Notes: generated by a model from the letters alone, not told the origin. 64,000 nt of DNA from Isurus oxyrinchus (GCA_026770705.1 JANJGN010000007.1:34162001-34226000); one strand, 5' to 3'; shown: positions 5,860 to 54,940, counted from the first letter of the stretch. Made by a program: numbers and translations.

Positions 5860-6960
5860 AGATGAGATGAATAAGTGGCTAAAGGGCTGGTGTGGGAAGA
5901 GGGATTCCTTTTCATGGCACACTAGCACCAGTTCAGGGACAGGAAGGAGCTATACTGATGGGATGGGCTCCACCTGAACTCCGATGAGACCCATTTTCTA
6001 GCAGAAGGGGTAAATAGGGAGATGGCAAAAGCTTTAAACTAGTAAAGGGGCGAGGGATCTATAAGAAATGTAAATAGTCTCATTGCAAACATAAGAGAAC
6101 ATAGGAAAAAATAAAGTAAGGAAGCACATTGATGGCAAGGGAATAAATAAGAATAAAGGAATGGGGATCTAAAAACATAAGAGGAAAACCTATTAAAAAT
6201 GAGTTTAAGTGTCTGTACAATGTACACAGTGCCTGTAATAAAACAGGGGAGCTGGAAGCAATCAAGCATTGGGAGAGAGCAGACGTGGTAGAGATACTGA
6301 GTCATGGCTACAGAAAAATCAGGACCGGGAATTAAACATTGCAGGGTACAACATATTTAGAAAAGACAGAGGGGGAATCAGGGAGGAGGCGTATCTCTAC
6401 TTATTCTGGATAACATAATAGCAGTAGAAAAAAAGGGATGTAGCTGTCAGCAAACCAAAAATATAATCCAAAATAAAAAGAAAAAATACTGGAAACATTC
6501 AACAGTATCTATGGAGAGAGAAAAACAAGAGTTAATGTTTCAGATCATGATCTTTCATTAGAATAGTTCTGATGAAAGGCCACAACCTAGACCATTAATT
6601 GTTTCTCTCTCCACAGATGCTGCCAGGCCTGAGTATTTCCAATATTTTCCATTTTTATTTCAGATTTCCAGCATCTGCAGTATTTTGCTTTGTAAGAACA
6701 GAATCCATATGGATAGAGATAAAAAAATAATAAATGATCAATCACACTAACAGATGGCATCTATAGACCACTTAGTTTTGTGGTGGGGGGGGGAAAGACG
6801 GGCATGGGATGGGGAAGAAATAGGGAGAGAAATTAGGGAAGAATAAAAGGCCTAAAGTAATGATCATATGGAATTTCAACTACCCTGATCTTAACTGAGA
6901 AGAAGAGGTGGTTAAAGGGATAAAGGAACAGAGTTCCTGCACTGTACACAGGGTAGTGCA
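5860..6960 (+). mobile_element. CR1 LINE fragment: end of ORF1 (SGNH esterase) and start of ORF2 AP endonuclease
   Basis: Decayed frames read WLKGWCGKRGFLFM..H..FRDRKELY..DGLHLN (ORF1 esterase) and CLYN.., FRKDRGG..GGGVSLLI, YRP, FNYP (APE). Confidence 0.75.
6470..6692. mobile_element. Penelope-derived miniature palindromic element with two decayed hammerhead motifs, nested in CR1
   Basis: Right arm gttctgatgaaaggccacaacctag...ccacagatgctgccaggcctgagtatttcc...tttccagcatctgcagtattttgctt matches the 21634-21769 tail; left arm 6470-6564 is its inverted, shorter counterpart. Confidence 0.75.
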
Positions 6961-17790: not shown

Positions 17791-18286
17791 TAAATTAGTT
17801 AATGAGTGGTGAAAATTAAATATAAATTATGTCTTTCCTATTTGACTGCTGATTACAGGCTCTGATACTTGATCAAACTGTCTCAAAATTAATGGTCCAC
17901 TCACCGCGTCATGAAAGCTATAAATATAATGTTCTGTTCTCTTCGTTTTGAACTCCTCCATCACTTATAAATTGGCTTAGTTTGCATCATGCTCTGTAAG
18001 TTAAAATAAATAAAATTCACCCTTTTAGCCAAAACTGTTAAATATGTGTCCTGGACTCTATACCAACAGTTACTACCATATCACATTAAAGATTATAATG
18101 TAACCAAATGCATCAGAGATCGCTATCCAGTCCCTTCTTAAGAACAATAACAATAAATTCTACATGTTATTAGTTTATTCCAATAGATAGATCCTAGTTT
18201 CCAAACAGAACATAGACATTTATGGAAACATGAGAATGTGATTTCTGAAAGCCAACCAGTCAAGGTTGAATAACTTATTTATTTTA

Positions 18287-18444
18287 TAAAAACAAAAAAA
18301 CTGCGGATGCTGGAAATCCAAAACAAAAACAAAAACAGAGCAGGACAGTTCTGTCGAAGGGTCATGAGGACTCGAAACGTCAATTCTTTTCTTCTCCACC
18401 GATGCTGCCAGACCTGCTGAGTTTTTCCAGGAAATTCTGTTTTT
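18287..18444. mobile_element. Miniature Penelope-like insertion (inverted tail plus hammerhead motif)
   Basis: Near-identical to 21634-21769; flanked by ttatttatttta at 18275-18286 and 18443-18454 (TSD). Confidence 0.85.
18347..18385 (+). ncRNA. Minimal type I hammerhead ribozyme motif
   Basis: agtt-CTGTCGA-a-gggtc-atgag-gactc-GAAAC-GTC-aatt. Confidence 0.65.
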
Positions 18445-19770
18445 ATTTATTTTACATTAGTTCAAGGGTTTCTTTTTTCTCTAATTTTCCTCCCTTTTCT
18501 TCTCTGCTTTCCTGAATCCAATGACTGTGATTTGCTCCACAGGCAAAGCAATTATTGAATACCTTCCCAATGGACCACACTTCTTGTGTAAGCTGAACAG
18601 TGAGGGGGTATTTTCCTAGCAGGAAACAGGTAGGCTTGGGTTAAGTCTCCAGTTTTTATACCCTGGACAATTTTACTCCCCATGAAAATCAATGGAAAGT
18701 AAAATCAGGCTGGCTGTAAAAAAAGGCCAAACTGCCCAGGCCCAATAAATTAAGTTATAATTGATGCCTGAATGGCAGCAGGTTATTTTTTTTCAAGGGA
18801 AAGTGAAATATCAGTTATTTTTTCTCACAGCACTGATTTGACATCGCAATCACAGTGGTTACTAATTGTAATCAGGCTGACCTTTTCCACTCCTTAAAAT
18901 GAGGATATCAAGACCAATGTTAGCTCCTCCAAGACTGTTCTGGATTAATATTCATTAGCTCAGTCTAAACCAGAGATCAAACCTGGAGCAGGTATGATTG
19001 TGTGGCTTATTCTGGTGGTTTCATTTCATTGAAATTCAGGGGCCAGGAAGAGGGACATGTTTTTGGAAGTTTATTGGAGGTGTGTGTGAAAGTGCAAATG
19101 TAAGTGATTGAAATTTTCTTTATGGTAATTCATTATGTATGCAGCAATATATATTATTTTATTCTACTTGATTCTATTCTGGGGCCATATTTTAATGGGT
19201 AAGTTAAGGATTCATCCAGTTATGGAGACTGATATTGCATCAATTTAAATGCCATGGTTCTAGCTGAAATAACTAATTGCAAGAACAATAGAATAACTAT
19301 TATATACAAGATTACCTCTCCGTGTCAAAAGAGACATTCACTTCTTAGGAAAAGCATTTGTAGAATTATCAAAAGTTAACTTACTAAATAGTTGTGTATT
19401 AAATATGGCCGACAGTTTAGTTCTGCAAGTGTATTAACTAAACATTCATAATCAGTAGAATTGTTTGAAGATTTTAAAATTAATTAACTCTTTTTAAATA
19501 CAGTGATGGGTAGCCTTATAATTAAAATAGAGAGTTAGAAATCTACCTGGATGGCTTTGTCATGAACTTGAATCATGGCCTTGAATGAAAATGTTCCTCT
19601 CTAACTGAATAGATTTTGTTATTTCCGAAGCAGACCACAAGGTGGAGAAATGCAAGAAAGCAGAGTGCTTCATCTTACATGGGGGAGGTGAGTAAAACAA
19701 TCACCTAAGAGAAAAACAGAATTACCTGGAAAAACTCAGCAGGTCTGGCAGCATCGGCGGAGAAGAAAAG

Positions 19771-19809
19771 AGTTGACGTTTCAAGTCCTCATGACCCTTC
19801 GACAGAACT
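19771..19809 (-). ncRNA. Minimal type I hammerhead ribozyme motif (left arm)
   Basis: Reverse complement: agtt-CTGTCGA-a-gggtc-atgag-gactt-GAAAC-GTC-aact. Confidence 0.65.
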
Positions 19810-20212
19810 TGATTTCGAGTCCAAGAAAGAGTTGAAATATAAGCTGGTTTAAGGTGTGTGTGGGGGGGGGGGGGGGGGGGCGGAGAGATAGAGGGAGAGA
19901 GAGAGTTGGTTGTGTAGACAAACAAGCAGTGATAGAAGCAGATCATCAAAAGATGTCAGCGACAATGGTACAAAAGAACACATAGGTGTTAAAGTTAAAG
20001 TTGGTGATATTATCTAAATGAATGTGCTAATTAAGAATGGATGGTAGGGCACTCAAGGTACAGCTCTAGTGGGGGTGGGGGGGAGCATAAAAGATTTTAA
20101 AATATTTAAAAATAATGGAAATAGGTGGGAAAAGAAAAATCTATATAATTTATAGGGAAAAAAAAAGGAAAAAGGGGGGAAACAGAAAGGGGGTGGGGAT
20201 GGGGGAGGGAGC

Positions 20213-20890
20213 TCACGACCTAAAGTTGTTGAATTCAATATTCAGACCGGAAGGCTGTAAGGTGCCTAGTCGGAAGATGAGGTGTTGTTCCTCCAGTTTG
20301 CGTTGGGCTTCACTGGAACAATGCAGCAAGCCAAGGACAGACATGTGGGCAAGAGAGCAGGGTGGAGTGTTAAAATGGCAAGCGACAGGGAGGTTTGGGT
20401 CATTCTTGCGGACAGACCGCAGGTGTTCTGCAAAGCGGTCGCCCAGTTTACGTTTGGTCTCTCCAATGTAGAGGAGACCACATTGGGAGCAACGAATGCA
20501 GTAGACTAAGTTGGGGGAAATGCAAGTGAAATGCTGCTTCACTTGAAAGGAGTGTTTGGGCCCTTGGACGGTGAGGAGAGAGGAAGTGAAGGGGCAGGTG
20601 TTACATCTTTTGCGTGGGCATGGGGTGGTGCCATAGGAGGGGGTTGAGGAGTAGGGGGTGATGGAGGAGTGGACCAGGATGTCCCGGAGGGAGCGATCCC
20701 TACGGAATGCTGATAAGGGGGGTGAAGGGAAGATGTGTTTGGTGGTGGCATCATGCTGGAGTTGGCGGAAATGGCGGAGGATGATCCTTTGAATGCGGAG
20801 GCTGGTGGGGTGATAAGTGAGGACAAGGGGGACCCTATCATGTTTCTTGGAGGGAGGAGAAGGCGTGAGGGCGGATGCGCGGGAGATGGT
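20213..20890 (-). CDS. PLE ORF C-terminal fragment: RT thumb/linker, Cys-rich linker, GIY-YIG endonuclease
   Basis: RVPLVLTYHP...AFRRDRSLRDILV, CPRKRCNTC, NLVYCIRCSQCGLLYIGETKRKLGDRFAEH, ..LQPSGLN; open frame without stops but 5'-truncated. Confidence 0.85.
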   Translation of the reverse strand, partial: TISRASALTPSPPSKKHDRVPLVLTYHPTSLRIQRIILRHFRQLQHDATTKHIFPSPPLSAFRRDRSLRDILVHSSITPYSSTPSYGTTPCPRKRCNTCPFTSSLLTVQGPKHSFQVKQHFTCISPNLVYCIRCSQCGLLYIGETKRKLGDRFAEHLRSVRKNDPNLPVACHFNTPPCSLAHMSVLGLLHCSSEAQRKLEEQHLIFRLGTLQPSGLNIEFNNFRS

Positions 20891-21245
20891 CCAAGGACAC
20901 AAACACTGCTTTCAAGTGAAGCAGCATTTCACTTGCATTTCCCCCAACTTAGTCTACTGCATTCGTTGCTCCCAATGTGGTCTCCTCTACATTGGAGAGA
21001 CCAAACGTAAACTGGGCGACCGCTTTGCAGAACACCTGCGGTCTGTCCGCAAGAATGACCCAAACCTCCCTGTCGCTTGCCATTTTAACACTCCACCCTG
21101 CTCTCTTGCCCACATGTCTGTCCTTGGCTTGCTGCATTGTTCCAGTGAAGCCCAACGCAAACTGGAGGAACAACACCTCATCTTCCGACTAGGCACCTTA
21201 CAGCCTTCCGGTCTGAATATTGAATTCAACAACTTTAGGTCGTGA
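20889..21245 (+). CDS. Second copy of the GIY-YIG endonuclease domain (right arm)
   Basis: FQVKQHFTCISPNLVYCIRCSQCGLLYIGET...GLNIEFNNFRS identical to the left-arm translation. Confidence 0.8.
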   Translation, partial: VQGHKHCFQVKQHFTCISPNLVYCIRCSQCGLLYIGETKRKLGDRFAEHLRSVRKNDPNLPVACHFNTPPCSLAHMSVLGLLHCSSEAQRKLEEQHLIFRLGTLQPSGLNIEFNNFRS

Positions 21246-21633
21246 GCTCCCTCCCCCATCCCCACCCCCTTTCTGTTTCCCCCTTTTTCCTTTTTCTTTC
21301 CCTATAAATTATATAGATTTTTCTTTTCCCACCTATTTCCATTATTTTTAAATATTTTAAAATCTTTTATGCTCCCCCCACCCCCACTAGAGCTGTACCT
21401 TGAGTGCCCTACCATCCATTCTTAATTAGCACATTCGTTTAGATAATATCACCAACTTTAACTTTAACACCTATGTGTTCTTTTGTACCATTGTCGCTGA
21501 CATCTTTTGATGATCTGCTTCTATCACTGCTTGTTTGTCTACACAACCACCTCTCTCTCTCTCTATCTCTCCGCCCCCCACACACACACCTTAAACCAGC
21601 TTATATTTCAACTCTTTCTTGGACTCGAAATCA

Positions 21634-21672
21634 AGTTCTGTCGAAGAGTCATGAGGACTCGAAACGTCAACT
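21634..21672 (+). ncRNA. Minimal type I hammerhead ribozyme motif (right arm)
   Basis: agtt-CTGTCGA-a-gagtc-atgag-gactc-GAAAC-GTC-aact; stem I agtt/aact, stem II gagtc/gactc, predicted cleavage after GUC at 21668. Confidence 0.7.
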
Positions 21673-23237
21673 CTTTTCTTCTCCGCCGATGCTGCCAGAC
21701 CTGCTGAGTTTTTCCAGGTAATTCTGTTTTTGTTTTGGATTTCCAGCATCCGCAGTTTTTTTTTGTTTTAATCACCTAAGAGGATCACCTTCTCCAGCCA
21801 AGTTTATCCAGTCATTCTCAGCTAAAAGAATAAAGCAGCACATAATGGCAGATGGGTCAATGAGAAGAAGTGTGTACATATAGAGAATAACATATCTTTA
21901 ATAACAATCTGTTATTGAGAACCCTAGGTTACAATTAAAGCGGTTCAGAGTGATTAGAGCAAAAATCAATTTTGGCTTTGCTCCAATGCCATTGACATAG
22001 GTGATAACCTGAAATTTTACTGTCCCGACCCCACCCCAACACTGGACACAGCAGTGCACCCAAAGTGCAGTGTTTCTGTCCAGGTCAAGAGGTACTGCTG
22101 TTTCTTGTCCTGAACAATCAACATGGCTGGGCCTTAGATCAAAAAAATGACACAATTTTAAACACATCAGAACACCAAAATTGTGGCCTTTTAGTTACTG
22201 ATGGGTGCGAGCAGGTAGGAGGCTATAATTGCATTCAAACATTCTGGGAGGAAGTGTAAAATCAGTTTGCTGATCTGTGTGTACTGCCTTCAGACCCCAT
22301 GCACCAATAGAGTTCCTGGGGCAGACAAAGTGCTAGAGGAATTGGCCTCACCTCTCCCCACCTGAAGGGAAACTCCAGTTATCCCAGGGCATTGTGAAAG
22401 AAAGGAGAGTCAGCGAGTAGGTGTTTGCCACTTTTTTCTGAGTTTGCACCCAGAGAAATGGAAATTTCCCAGGGGCAAAGGTCAGAAAAGTAGGCACTTG
22501 CATTTTTTGCCAATTTTAATGACTCTGGTCATTGTTATCAATCAGATTATACATTTTTCTATTTTATCTTTCACACTAATTTCTGGTATCACTAGTCTAC
22601 CTTCAACATCTTACATGTAAATACTGAAAACACTGATAGCTAAAGACAGAAAATATTTTCCTAATCCTAAAGCAGTTGTAACTTGTACAGTGTGGAAATC
22701 TGTGTGGAAACCAATTATAGGAAGTCTTACCTAATGTCAGTGACATCAAATTTATAAGATTTCCTAGGATCACTGATTCCAGTAAAATCACAAACATGCT
22801 CTGAAAAAATGCTTTCATGACTTTTCTAGAAGTAGCAGTCAGATTCAATCTTCTTACTAGGCTTATGATGGTATGTGCTCTTCATCAGCACTCCTTTGTT
22901 CACTGAGAGTGCATACCAGGAATCCATACACGTGCCACCATGATTTTCTGTTCTCAACCCCCAACTCTACATTTAATGAGCAGAAAAAACAGGGTTTATG
23001 CATCTGGATTCTCAAATGTGCTCCATGTGCACAAAGCTGTGTTCTGGCTGCACTGAAGATGAACATTTACCCCAATGTCAGCAACATGCTAACCCAAAAA
23101 TGGTGAATTGCACATTCCAGACATTTTCTGTCATCTTTGGGGGGAGGGTTAAATGGTTACAGGGTAACTTCAACATCAGAGAAAATAAATTGGCACTATG
23201 TCAAATATCTTTTTTCAATCATATTTTGATTGTTTTA

Positions 23238-23412
23238 GTGAAGATTTTGAGAAATATGGTGCTACTTATGCATCAACGTACAAGTTAACAAAACAAACTT
23301 GTTGTAATTCCAAGAACACTATAAAGTTGATAGTTCTTGGAATTACAACAAATGTGTTTTGTTAACTTGTAAGCTGATGCATAAATAGCACTGCTTTTCT
23401 CAAAATCTTCAC
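23238..23412. repeat. 80-bp-arm inverted repeat (hairpin) with 15-nt loop
   Basis: 23238-23317 vs reverse complement of 23333-23412: 9 mismatches in 80, no gaps. Confidence 0.9.
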
Positions 23413-40599: not shown

Positions 40600-41024
40600 T
40601 TCAGGGCGGAGAGAGAGGGGGGAGAGAGAGAGAGAGAGAGAGAGAGACGAAATCACGTGAGTTAATGATGTTGCAAGCCTCCCAACTCTCGCTCTCTCCC
40701 GACAAGATCGTACGGTTTAGATATCCGGAAAAGTTACAAATCAGTCCAAGTGAATAAGCAACAGCACGGCCGAGCGAGCTAGCGGCTCAGAGACAGGATC
40801 GCGCTCTTTAAGGCTACCACTTTCCCTGCATCCTAAAAGAGAATGTGTCAAAATGAAGTTTGTTGCCTCGAAATGAAACCTCGCTCTGGTGTGGAGCACT
40901 GAACAGCTCAGAACTTGTGGAATTCAGTGAGCAGCCGCAGCAGTATTGAGGGGAACATCAACCTGCATTATTGGTGTCTTTCGCCCACCCCCCCTCTTCT
41001 CAGCTGCATTGTGGCGTAAAGAAA
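40600..41024 (+). promoter_or_regulatory. BARX1: BARX1 proximal promoter and 5' UTR
   Basis: (GA)n 40609-40647, TCACGTGA 40653-40660, CpG-rich, directly upstream of the start codon; TSS not locatable from sequence. Confidence 0.6.
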
Positions 41025-41229
41025 ATGATGCAGAATCCCCTGGAGCTGGAAGCTCATTACCTGCCTCACGAGCCGATCCATGATTATAGGTCTCACCGAT
41101 ACAGGAGCTTTATGATCGAGGAGATACTGACTGAACCCCCGGGCCCAGGCAAAGTCACGAATGGGGGAGAGCTCCTCAAATTCGGGGTTCATGCCCTGCT
41201 CAACAGTCGGCCCTACCACAGCCATCTAG
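41025..41229 (+). CDS. BARX1: BarH-like homeobox 1, coding exon 1
   Basis: [43 protein letters not shown] with eh1/FIL-type motif; donor G|GTAGGT, phase 1. Confidence 0.95.
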
Positions 41230-42662: not shown

Positions 42663-42957
42663 CCGGCCTGAAAACAGACCACACTGGAGTTTTTAAGTTC
42701 CCGCTGGGTCCGATCTCGTGTAGTCTTGCCGCGCCGTTGGGTTCAGCGTTGGTATCTGGAGGATCGAGCCTGCCCACCGGGCCCGGAGGTCCGCACCTTC
42801 CCTTAGACCTGCACCTCCGCTCCAAGCTCGAGCAAGGTCCCGAACCAGGAAACAAAGCAAAAAAAGGCAGGAGGAGCCGAACAGTCTTTACTGAACTGCA
42901 ACTAATGGGACTCGAGAAACGATTTGAAAAGCAGAAATATCTCTCAACACCAGACAG
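42663..42957 (+). CDS. BARX1: BARX1 coding exon 2 (N-terminal part of homeodomain)
   Basis: Acceptor cttacAG; [15 protein letters not shown]...[32 protein letters not shown]; donor AG|GTAACT, phase 2. Confidence 0.97.
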
Positions 42958-43669: not shown

Positions 43670-43754
43670 AATAGACCTAGCAGAATCTTTGGGCCTTAGT
43701 CAACTTCAGGTGAAAACTTGGTACCAAAACCGAAGAATGAAGTGGAAGAAAATA
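43670..43754 (+). CDS. BARX1: BARX1 coding exon 3 (homeodomain helices 2-3)
   Basis: Acceptor tacAG after a T-tract; [28 protein letters not shown] with the Bar-class TWYQN; donor |GTAAGT, phase 0. Confidence 0.97.
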
Positions 43755-43842
43755 GTAAGTATTCTATGTCATGGGTTTTCAGCAACGAAAATGTGCGTGG
43801 AATAGTAGTGGCTCGTTGCTAAGCTAGTATTTTATTTTAAAG

Positions 43843-50200: not shown

Positions 50201-51690
50201 TTCTCCTCAGTTATGGTTGTGATGTAGGAATACTTAGGATCACGCAATTCCCTTTAGCCTTTGCAAAGTATTGACCAAAATTATTGTATTAAAATTCGAG
50301 ACGCTATTTCTTACGATTCGATACGGTTACTTTAGGTGCTTTTGAAGCCATGCAATACACTCGTAAACACGAGTTAATAATGAAAGTGCAATACAAGTGC
50401 TCAGAGAAGCTACGGCTCTCACTTTAAAATCACTTCAGTAAAATGTACATGATAGTAATGATCCGAGTTAACAATCAGCCGTTCAAAAGCGCGAATTTGT
50501 TTTATATTCTTTGATACTGTCAATATGCAATCTCCTCACCACTCAATCACGTCGATTTGTTGATGAGTGTAATTTTAAAACATTAGGTTCTGTGGAATTA
50601 AAGGATGTAAATTGGCTGTGGAGTTTTCCCCCTACATTGCAACAGATGCCACATTCAAGAGTACCTCTGACTGAAGAGCTTTGGATCCTCCCGACAGCGT
50701 AAAAAAGCAGAAATGCAAGTTTATTTTACTTCTTTCAGAATAAATTACACATGTTTTCAATATGAACACCAGAATAATACATTAATATGTGAATGACATT
50801 CTTTTTATTATAAATATTACACGATTTAAATCATGATTCTTCACGACTTGTGAGATTAGTGTATACTGAATAATTATATCCTAGATATCAATTATATTGA
50901 GTTTGAATGTGAATGTTCTCAAGCTTGCAACCGTACCGGAAATCTGTATACATCTGGCTGAACATAAATAAAATGCATTATACCTTGTAATGAGGTCTGG
51001 TGTAGGCGCCGGTTTCCATGTTACATCTGTCATACATTTCTGAATCACTGTTAAAAGATGTGATACCGTAGTTTCTTTCATTGTCATATGCCATCATTAT
51101 GAGACATGTTGTCAAGCAGCTCCCGATCTGAGGAGTACTAAAAACCATGAACATTGCAATAAAACTGCAATAAACAAAGACTCGTTTGTACCGAGTTACT
51201 GAGCCAGTTGTAATCTCGCCATTCACATATTTCACGGGTGACTGGATAAATACTCGCAAGCAATACTGTTTCTTAGAAACTATTGCTACTACAATATATC
51301 TTTACTGAATTGCTCTTCGTTTGCCGAAGGCAGACAAGGCCAACCTAATTCCTTCTGATTTTCACGTGGTCAAAGCGCAAAATATAGAGGCAGAGAAGGG
51401 AGCAAGACTTAATGGCAATATTCATATTACCCAAGCATGGAGTGTATTTCTGATGGTGAATACTATCCTGTTTACAGTCAACACCGTGCCTGGGTGCTTT
51501 GCGTAGACATGGTTACATGCATTCAACATTTTTATGTTTTACATCCAATAACATGATCCATACAATAAGAAGCACAAGAGCGAGTACATCCTGTACATTG
51601 CGGAGTTTATAGAATTTCTCACCCTGCGACCAAATGACGAGCTTCTGAATTGTTTTAATTGACTATATATTATCAATGTAAACTGCAGGT

Positions 51691-51774
51691 CCACAAATGC
51701 TGCCTGACCTGCTGAGTATTTCCAGCATTTTCGGTTTTTATTTCAGATTTTCAGCATCCGCAGTATTTTGCTTT
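51691..51774 (+). mobile_element. Isolated 3' tail of the Penelope-derived family
   Basis: ccacaaatgctgcctgacctgctgagtatttccagcatttt...ttcagcatccgcagtattttgcttt matches 21685-21760. Confidence 0.75.
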
Positions 51775-54551: not shown

Positions 54552-54940
54552 AAATAAAAACAAAAAGTGCTGGAAAACCTCAGTAGGTCTGGCAGCATCT
54601 GTGGAGAGAGAAACAGAGTTAGCGTTTTGAGTCCAAAATGACTTCTTCAGAACTGAAGAGAGGTGGAAATGTGATAGGTTTTAACACTGTTGAAAAAAGG
54701 GGGGAATGGGGTTAAGGGAGGAGGTGGAGCAAAAGGGAAGGTCAGAGATAGGTTGAGGGTGGGTGAGATTAAATACCAAAGATGTCATGGAGCAAAAGGC
54801 AAAGGGATTCATAATATTAGTATTAAAGAAACAATGCATTGGTCCAACATAGGTGTTAATAGCAAAATAAAGGTCAACTCGGTCTGAAAGCAAAAAAAAA
54901 ATAACAAGATGCAAACTGGCACTTGGGGTGGGGGGAGGAG
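54552..54940 (-). mobile_element. Older Penelope-like pLTR/3' fragment with decayed hammerhead (54617-54654)
   Basis: Reverse complement agtt-CTGAAGA-agtc-attttg-gact-caaaac-gct-aact; aaagatgtca..caaaag and cataggtgttaa shared with 19950-19995. Confidence 0.7.

Follow-up and report, generated by a model that had tools for sequence, protein, structure and literature searches.

Two Penelope-like insertions and their hammerhead motifs

A 64,000-nucleotide stretch of Isurus oxyrinchus DNA (GCA_026770705.1 JANJGN010000007.1:34162001-34226000; below, the window) carries two insertions of a Penelope-like element (PLE) that end in motifs resembling the minimal hammerhead ribozymes (min-HHRs) of such elements. 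Three motifs of 39 nt each were found at the sites and with the letters given by the original prediction (Table 1), and in all three the core reads CUGUCGA, with U instead of A at position 6. The position numbers of the hammerhead, and the roles assigned to G8 and G12, are taken from PMC6155905 and PMC11300833. The plus-arm motif also has an extra A, a 5-bp stem II, GAAA and the palindromic ACGU; its putative cut lies after C 21668, a rare A stands at 21647 within its stem II, and the cut site is intact in all full motifs of the window.

A covariance model was trained on 21 hammerheads (20 A6, one G6; drawn from 33 matches), all from related elements and none from the window, and the top three of its nine window matches are exactly the three motifs, at 21.5-24.7 bits (E-values, which are rough, 5e-5 to 5e-4) against 14.6 bits for the next. 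By this ranking the motifs are homologous to canonical PLE hammerheads at the corresponding position of the element; among the 12 Rfam matches in the window up to E 10, none was to a hammerhead model. The GAAA box, the UH cut triplet, the palindromic 15.2-16.2, the extra base after A9 and the pair G10.1-C11.1 expected of a min-HHR are all present, although one arm alone has G-U instead of G-C at the last of these (1-3% of family depth). The min-HHR core box CUGANGA is absent from all three motifs and from the family majority. The motif is thus a variant with the layout of a min-HHR, and at most a putative member of the active class. An alternative core register through AUGAGGA in loop II was rejected on inspection, as it leaves no space for stem II, and a sequencing or assembly error as the origin of U6 is ruled out by two insertions, three sequencing runs and one named record.

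The original prediction counted three independent copies, a count that has to be lowered. Positions 19712-21769 form two head-to-head, 5′-truncated arms that are 97.2% identical over 856 columns, with about six substitutions in 832 aligned columns, and because a single 13-bp target site duplication flanks both arms, the motifs of the minus and plus arms belong to one insertion; the window therefore holds two insertions, not three. In a chance control of about 2,000 random window pairs the longest match was 10. The minus arm ceases to match at about 21735, leaving a tail at one end only, and a tail of 30-40 nt at one end of an inverted, 5′-truncated layout is a signature of Penelope elements (PMC8557442, PMC11167929). 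The second insertion, a short copy with no open reading frame (ORF), has a 12-bp target duplication at 18275 and 18443. Directly upstream of stem I in the long form lies a 13-nt stretch that partly repeats the 3′ strand of stem II plus GAAA, with its minus-arm counterpart at 19810-19822 (-).

The GIY-YIG endonuclease domain (PF01541) scores above cut-off in both arms, the minus-arm open frame spans 20213-20911 (232 codons), and the arm-encoded frame is 50% identical to the C-terminus of a protein that joins a reverse transcriptase (RT) to GIY-YIG. The best named relatives among 26 matches are shark and ray proteins at 55-65% identity, the closest of which (58-65%) carry RT motifs upstream; both window arms are truncated before RT. 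Judged by its layout, the element is presumably of the Poseidon type. Comparison with solved structures gave no match for the endonuclease part, and the element protein had no relative in viral contigs and two in genome contigs; a hammerhead DNA pattern indifferent to the core had no matches in metagenome or viral contigs. Hammerhead C3 lies 393 nt downstream of the ORF end, and constraint on the motif from the endonuclease frame was accordingly discarded as an explanation. Together, the domain, the tail layout and the covariance model uphold the predicted Penelope-like identity and minimal hammerhead, and the sequence evidence supports a Penelope-like family whose minimal hammerhead has CUGUCGA as its consensus core.

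Table 1. Penelope-like insertions and hammerhead motifs in the window
Feature	Position	Strand	Remarks
Old head-to-head pair, related family	6465..6693	.	plus arm retains CUGAUGA (6569); GAAA and stems decayed
Short ORF-less copy	18275..18454	+	hammerhead plus terminus (18347-18448) preceded by inverted tail (18288-18334) and short linker
Hammerhead motif, separate short copy	18347..18385	+	U6 = 18354; stem II GGGUC/GACUC, the family majority
13-bp target site duplication, left copy	19699..19711	+	sequence match to right copy
Penelope-like insertion, minus arm, 5′-truncated	19712..20888	-	ORF end with GIY-YIG endonuclease, 3′ UTR, hammerhead, terminus without tail
Hammerhead motif, minus arm of the same insertion as 21634..21672	19771..19809	-	U6 = 19802; C11.1 to U at a CpG
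Penelope-like insertion, plus arm	20889..21769	+	GIY-YIG C-terminus (frame end 21245), 3′ UTR, hammerhead, terminus and tail
13-nt partial duplicate of stem II 3′ strand and GAAA	21621..21633	+	directly upstream of stem I, long form
Minimal type I hammerhead motif, plus arm	21634..21672	+	stem I AGUU/AACU, core CUGUCGA, U6 = 21641
Tail, about 34 nt, one end only	21736..21769	+	minus arm ceases to match at about 21735
13-bp target site duplication, right copy	21770..21782	+	sequence match to left copy
Old copy, related family (79% alike)	54552..54654	-	core CUGAAGA (54650), G12 decayed

Core position 6 across the family and its relatives

The state of position 6 in the family at large was read from public runs aligned to 21590-21752 (at least 80% likeness; variants with at least a 2% share). 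Four of the 24 listed runs were chosen and three covered the region: X3 (organism A, 89,062 contigs from half of the run, which is possibly the window's own sample), X5 (organism B, 49,232) and X15 (organism B, 4,922, which is only guessed to be RNA). The fourth, the raw-read run X24, aligned zero reads. The data of the three covering runs are assembled contigs, in which rare variants are dropped and depth does not equal copy number, and A6 families more than 20% divergent from the window element fall outside the likeness threshold. Within that scope, A at position 6 (21641) accounts for less than 2% of depth in all three covering runs. The places with T>A (1, 1 and 0 per run) are fully accounted for by 21709 and 21675, and those with T>G by 21675; one T>C row, among seven rows with no assigned position, could be U6C. 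CUGUCGA is thus the subfamily consensus in two organisms, as had been predicted.

Elements related to this family carry the canonical letter: of 74 alignments, 72 have A at position 6, two have G and none has U, and the motif is otherwise near-identical, with the core CUGACGA. The related set comprises 82 loci, with 80 of 120 metagenome matches retained, and most come from one sample set, so that it represents one family and not a survey. Since A6 prevails among these relatives, A6U is a derived single change from CUGACGA, and the predicted fixation of that change by a lineage is borne out. The two relatives with G at position 6 (CUGGCGA) are loci L037 and L058. Another locus, L081, combines a Penelope-like endonuclease and a canonical hammerhead on an 8.4-kb contig of an Endozoicomonas metagenome-assembled genome, which is probably host DNA in the bin, and run X16, a coral metatranscriptome, contains 52% of the sequence words that make up the coding portion of the shark element, with cross-contamination as the likely cause.

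Whether the lineage is also young, as had been proposed, has a divided answer: only about six substitutions in 832 columns separate the two arms, but the family is common to two organisms and has a white shark record. That record is the white shark RefSeq model XP_041052712.1 (COMMD9), which reads through the motif as LSKGHEDSKRQ and fits U6-C7; a basking shark model contains the 3′ half of the motif, and a zebra shark relative reads LMKG at the corresponding site, which fits CUGAUGA. These models point to a mackerel shark as the probable source of the window. The read-through translation searches gave one match each, and the representatives library two, one of them unrelated, too few for a species census. 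The COMMD9 models XP_041052711.1, XP_041052712.1 and XP_041052714.1 hold an insert of 29-30 residues that is the translated hammerhead plus terminus. It ends at the element's AG/GTAATT donor-like site (21717), and from its sequence it is possibly an exonised sense-orientation copy. The basking shark model is AMBP-like (XP_078405857.1).

Variation within the family bears on two further points. The original prediction saw in stem II differences that preserve pairing through wobble, but the family stem II is GGGUC/GACUC: 97-99% of depth reads G at 21647, and 1-3% reads T at 21660, which lies in a CpG. The differences seen in the window are therefore rare transitions (1-3%, one of them in a CpG context) that are private to the arms of a single insertion. 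Of the ten possible stem II transitions six preserve pairing, so that two such changes would both do so by chance with P = 0.36, and there is no covariation signal; with the GAGUC and GACUU forms rare, stem II covariation was rejected. At 21630, A makes up about 47% of depth in organism A and at most 1% in organism B. This sub-lineage likely expanded in organism A after the split, which implies that the U6 family stayed mobile across the split of A and B. Two other sub-lineages differ at 21642, CUGUUGA with 16-24% of depth and a minor CUGUGGA with 0.4-4%.

The older relatives that had been predicted elsewhere in the window, with CUGAUGA and CUGAAGA cores (the latter on the minus strand), are indeed there, and both are decayed. 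A tail-only copy of a related Penelope family lies at 51690-51769, within a 28-kb CpG-rich domain (26000-54000) where observed/expected CpG is 0.5-1.0, compared with about 0.1-0.45 outside. This domain contains a Barx1-like homeobox gene on the plus strand, with exons near 40983-41200, 42866-42946 and 43680-43760, whose best solved-structure match is BarH-like 1 (E 1e-12); the U6 copies lie outside the domain, about 20 kb upstream of the gene. Inverted repeat pairs of 215, 135 and 80 nt (5658-5872/7112-7326, 56735-56869/57655-57789 and 23238-23412; 89-93% alike) and a 150-nt direct repeat (58333-58482/59342-59491) are probably further mobile-element remains.

Cleavage, copying and competing readings

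On balance we lean, with modest confidence, to the reading that a shark Penelope-like family of very high abundance carries the motif as its terminal minimal hammerhead, which A6U has crippled and a successful lineage has carried along. The original prediction offered continued cleavage or a non-catalytic role; published data favour the simplest option, missing from it, namely that the ribozyme is weakened and the element needs none (PMC11167929, PMC8557442, PMC7151607). In this scheme A6U would have arisen once, in a source element with a CUGACGA core. Reverse transcription would start in the tail downstream of the motif and would have to read through the uncut site, so that loss of cleavage would cost nothing, and the mutation would have hitch-hiked with the lineage. 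That the rest of the motif has remained intact would reflect either a departure of only one step from the canonical form or the persistence of slow residual activity.

That A6U likely cripples self-cleavage is argued by analogy with other changes at this position. In a fast ribozyme, A6C lowers kobs from 0.3 to 3.55e-6 per min at 0.3 mM Mg2+, about 10^5-fold, and a natural C6 ribozyme reaches 0.004-0.05 per min at 1-3 mM Mg2+ (PMC7151607). The natural A6C hammerhead of phage Bcep176 has low but detectable activity (PMC3088659), every single mutant in the position-6 loop is low in a full mutant scan (PMC9901934), and minimal PLE hammerheads are inherently weak and cleave only as dimers (PMC4209133). 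No rate data for A6U were found in the literature, where "A6U" together with hammerhead in one paper refers to twister.

Folding predictions point in opposite directions. In the isolated motif, stem II is predicted with P of about 1 and stem I with P 0.2-0.7. In the long form at 37 °C, stem II is predicted at P 0.00-0.11 with U6 and at 0.44-0.95 with A6 substituted (at 20 °C, 0.00-0.06 and 0.02-0.30), and the upstream 13-nt duplicate is a predicted competitor of the hammerhead fold. The dimer suggested earlier, through the ACGU palindrome, gains nothing from the calculations: the palindrome is present, yet the predicted dimer does not use it (P of about 0), and because a natural A6 relative likewise forms no ACGU duplex, the dimer model is uninformative either way. 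Two other arrangements were rejected: a helix between the two UCGA words has P of at most 0.02, and a permuted hammerhead that draws on the upstream duplicate would need its GAAA, which is GAAC in 99% of organism B depth.

How the element is copied bears on whether cleavage matters. In the window the ORF is upstream of the cut site and the tail downstream, so that, judging by this layout, every long copy would have been made from uncut RNA. For the Poseidon element of the anole, hammerhead mutants insert as well as wild type with the element's protein in vitro, no RNA-seq reads end at the cut, uncut RNA is the main substrate and reverse transcription begins in the tail (PMC11167929). Naiads, which have no hammerheads, are nevertheless more numerous than other families (PMC8557442). 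Copies that do not include the long upstream part make up 87%, 47% and 68% of summed depth in the three runs, where depth climbs from baseline near 21627 to a plateau at 21648-21661; this ramp agrees with starts around 21627-21635 and disagrees with starts at the cut (21668/9), although sister forms with different upstream sequence would yield an identical ramp. The listed contig joints end at 21631-21648, except for 21688 (twice) and 21703 (once). Given all this, the element would likely be copied from uncut RNA, and A6U could spread.

Several observations weigh against this explanation, most of them in favour of its strongest rival, that useful cleavage persists in the cell despite U6, through a slow ribozyme aided by the element protein, by dimer formation or by Mn2+, with the other core letters under selection. 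We consider this unlikely. The A6C ribozyme is rescued by Mn2+ (kobs 0.18), a metal that the active natural A6C ribozyme also prefers (PMC7151607), and the anole ribozyme cleaves only with the element's protein (PMC11167929). In the isolated motif at 37 °C, a hairpin that closes off core and cut site is predicted at -11.3 kcal/mol with A6 and at -7.3 with U6, so that U6, which loosens it by about 4 kcal/mol, could favour the active fold. Among the rows listed, no variant of at least 2% falls on the other invariant core letters, while the free position 7 (21642) is U in 16-24% of depth and G in 0.4-4%; C11.1U is at 1-3%, and G8A and G12A are unlisted. CpG decay at C11.1, G8 and G12 seems lower than at four other CpGs: in the DNA runs, decay at 21665, 21684 and 21687 amounts to 7-12%, with one half at 20% (inflated by a sister family), and where the window is CpG-poor, TCGA is depleted to the degree seen in other contexts and so is not spared. 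This pattern is a hint, no firmer, that selection may have acted on source elements after A6U, and three of the four listed stem I variants preserve pairing. Finally, starts at the motif edge are not specific to U6, because the old A6 pair at 6465-6693 also begins, in both arms, at the hammerhead 5′ edge.

Several points count against this rival. Unplaced G>A rows (three in X3, two in X5) may be the G8 and G12 sites, and contig simplification biases rare alleles; these effects could account for the CpG pattern. On the AACU strand of stem I, the majority of transitions leave pairing intact in any case. Even with A6, minimal hammerheads have weak activity; misfolding is predicted for the long form; and a white shark gene model, itself a prediction, has an intact sense copy translated within a coding exon. 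A more pointed version of continued activity, which we hold to be doubtful, would make U6 a switch that is slow by design, cutting only when the element protein or Mn2+ is present and otherwise sparing the template, every other catalytic letter being kept. On that account the fixation of A6U, which breaks the CUGA rule, would have been followed by very high copy number across mackerel-shark species.

It is very unlikely, in our judgement, that A6U was itself favoured, an uncut 3′ template giving more usable RNAs and so helping the family to expand. In its favour, the cut site separates the ORF from the tail, at which reverse transcription begins; the family reaches very high abundance (89,062 contigs in half of one run); no A6 form with the family stem II reaches 2%; and Craig et al. 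suggest that lack of the hammerhead may even help (PMC8557442). However, canonical A6 families are also abundant among the related loci, and a single lineage is a single event that hitch-hiking explains equally well.

That the motif preserves its sequence as a non-catalytic signal (a protein binding site, transcription start or splice boundary) is very unlikely: copy starts cluster at the motif's 5′ edge, a Drosophila virilis intron ends at helix I (PMC4209133) and older families have a pyrimidine tract and AG at the stem I start, but the 5′ part of the anole template, including its pLTR, is dispensable for insertion in vitro. In the related families the AG follows the tract exactly at the start of stem I (54654-54690 on the minus strand; loose contig ends at 21634), an arrangement that resembles a splice acceptor or initiator, and in the U6 long form the 13-nt duplicate separates tract from AG.

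Known hammerheads and the meaning of a U6 family

The family-wide A6U is a real variant of the known minimal Penelope hammerhead. The min-HHRs described from metazoan PLEs (PMC4209133) share with the window motif the terminal-repeat position, the type I layout, the short stem I, the extra nucleotide after A9, G10.1-C11.1, GAAA-C-G-UC and the palindromic ACGU. Their descriptor and all alignment rows examined have A6, in contrast to U6 here, and the core variant reported for them is U3-A8, not U6. In the related family from metagenome contigs (L001-L081), whose protein is 45-50% identical over the endonuclease part, the hammerhead, CUGACGA-A-GGGC...GCUC-GAAAC-GUC, is nearly identical but has A6 (72 of 74) and a 4-bp stem II.

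Two measured systems offer further comparison. PAc, the Poseidon element of Anolis carolinensis (PMC11167929), shares with the window element a C-terminal GIY-YIG, AT-rich insertion sites and a hammerhead just upstream of an optional 30-40 nt tail; its hammerhead cleaves with the help of protein, whereas in the window family the core is altered, and neither a full-length element nor a start codon turned up. The Bcep176 hammerhead (PMC3088659, PMC7151607) shares a natural pyrimidine at core position 6. Its C6 occurs at one phage locus, its stem III is complete and its activity, which has been measured, prefers Mn2+, whereas the shark family, known from sequence alone, has U6 in a very high-copy vertebrate retroelement and lacks stem III. 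No natural A6U hammerhead was found in the literature, on which supplements and PLE variant listings beyond the text available may bear, and no paper on shark Penelope hammerheads was found there.

What hammerheads do for Penelope-like elements is described as unclear, and perhaps they are parasitic (PMC8557442). A family that changed an invariant core letter and nonetheless expanded, in no fewer than two organisms, offers a natural experiment whose control differs by a single base. Should U6 prove able to cut, the hammerhead core consensus would need widening, and searches built on CUGANGA would be missing whole high-copy families; if U6 is dead, the shark family would provide in vivo evidence that cleavage is dispensable for Penelope-like elements.

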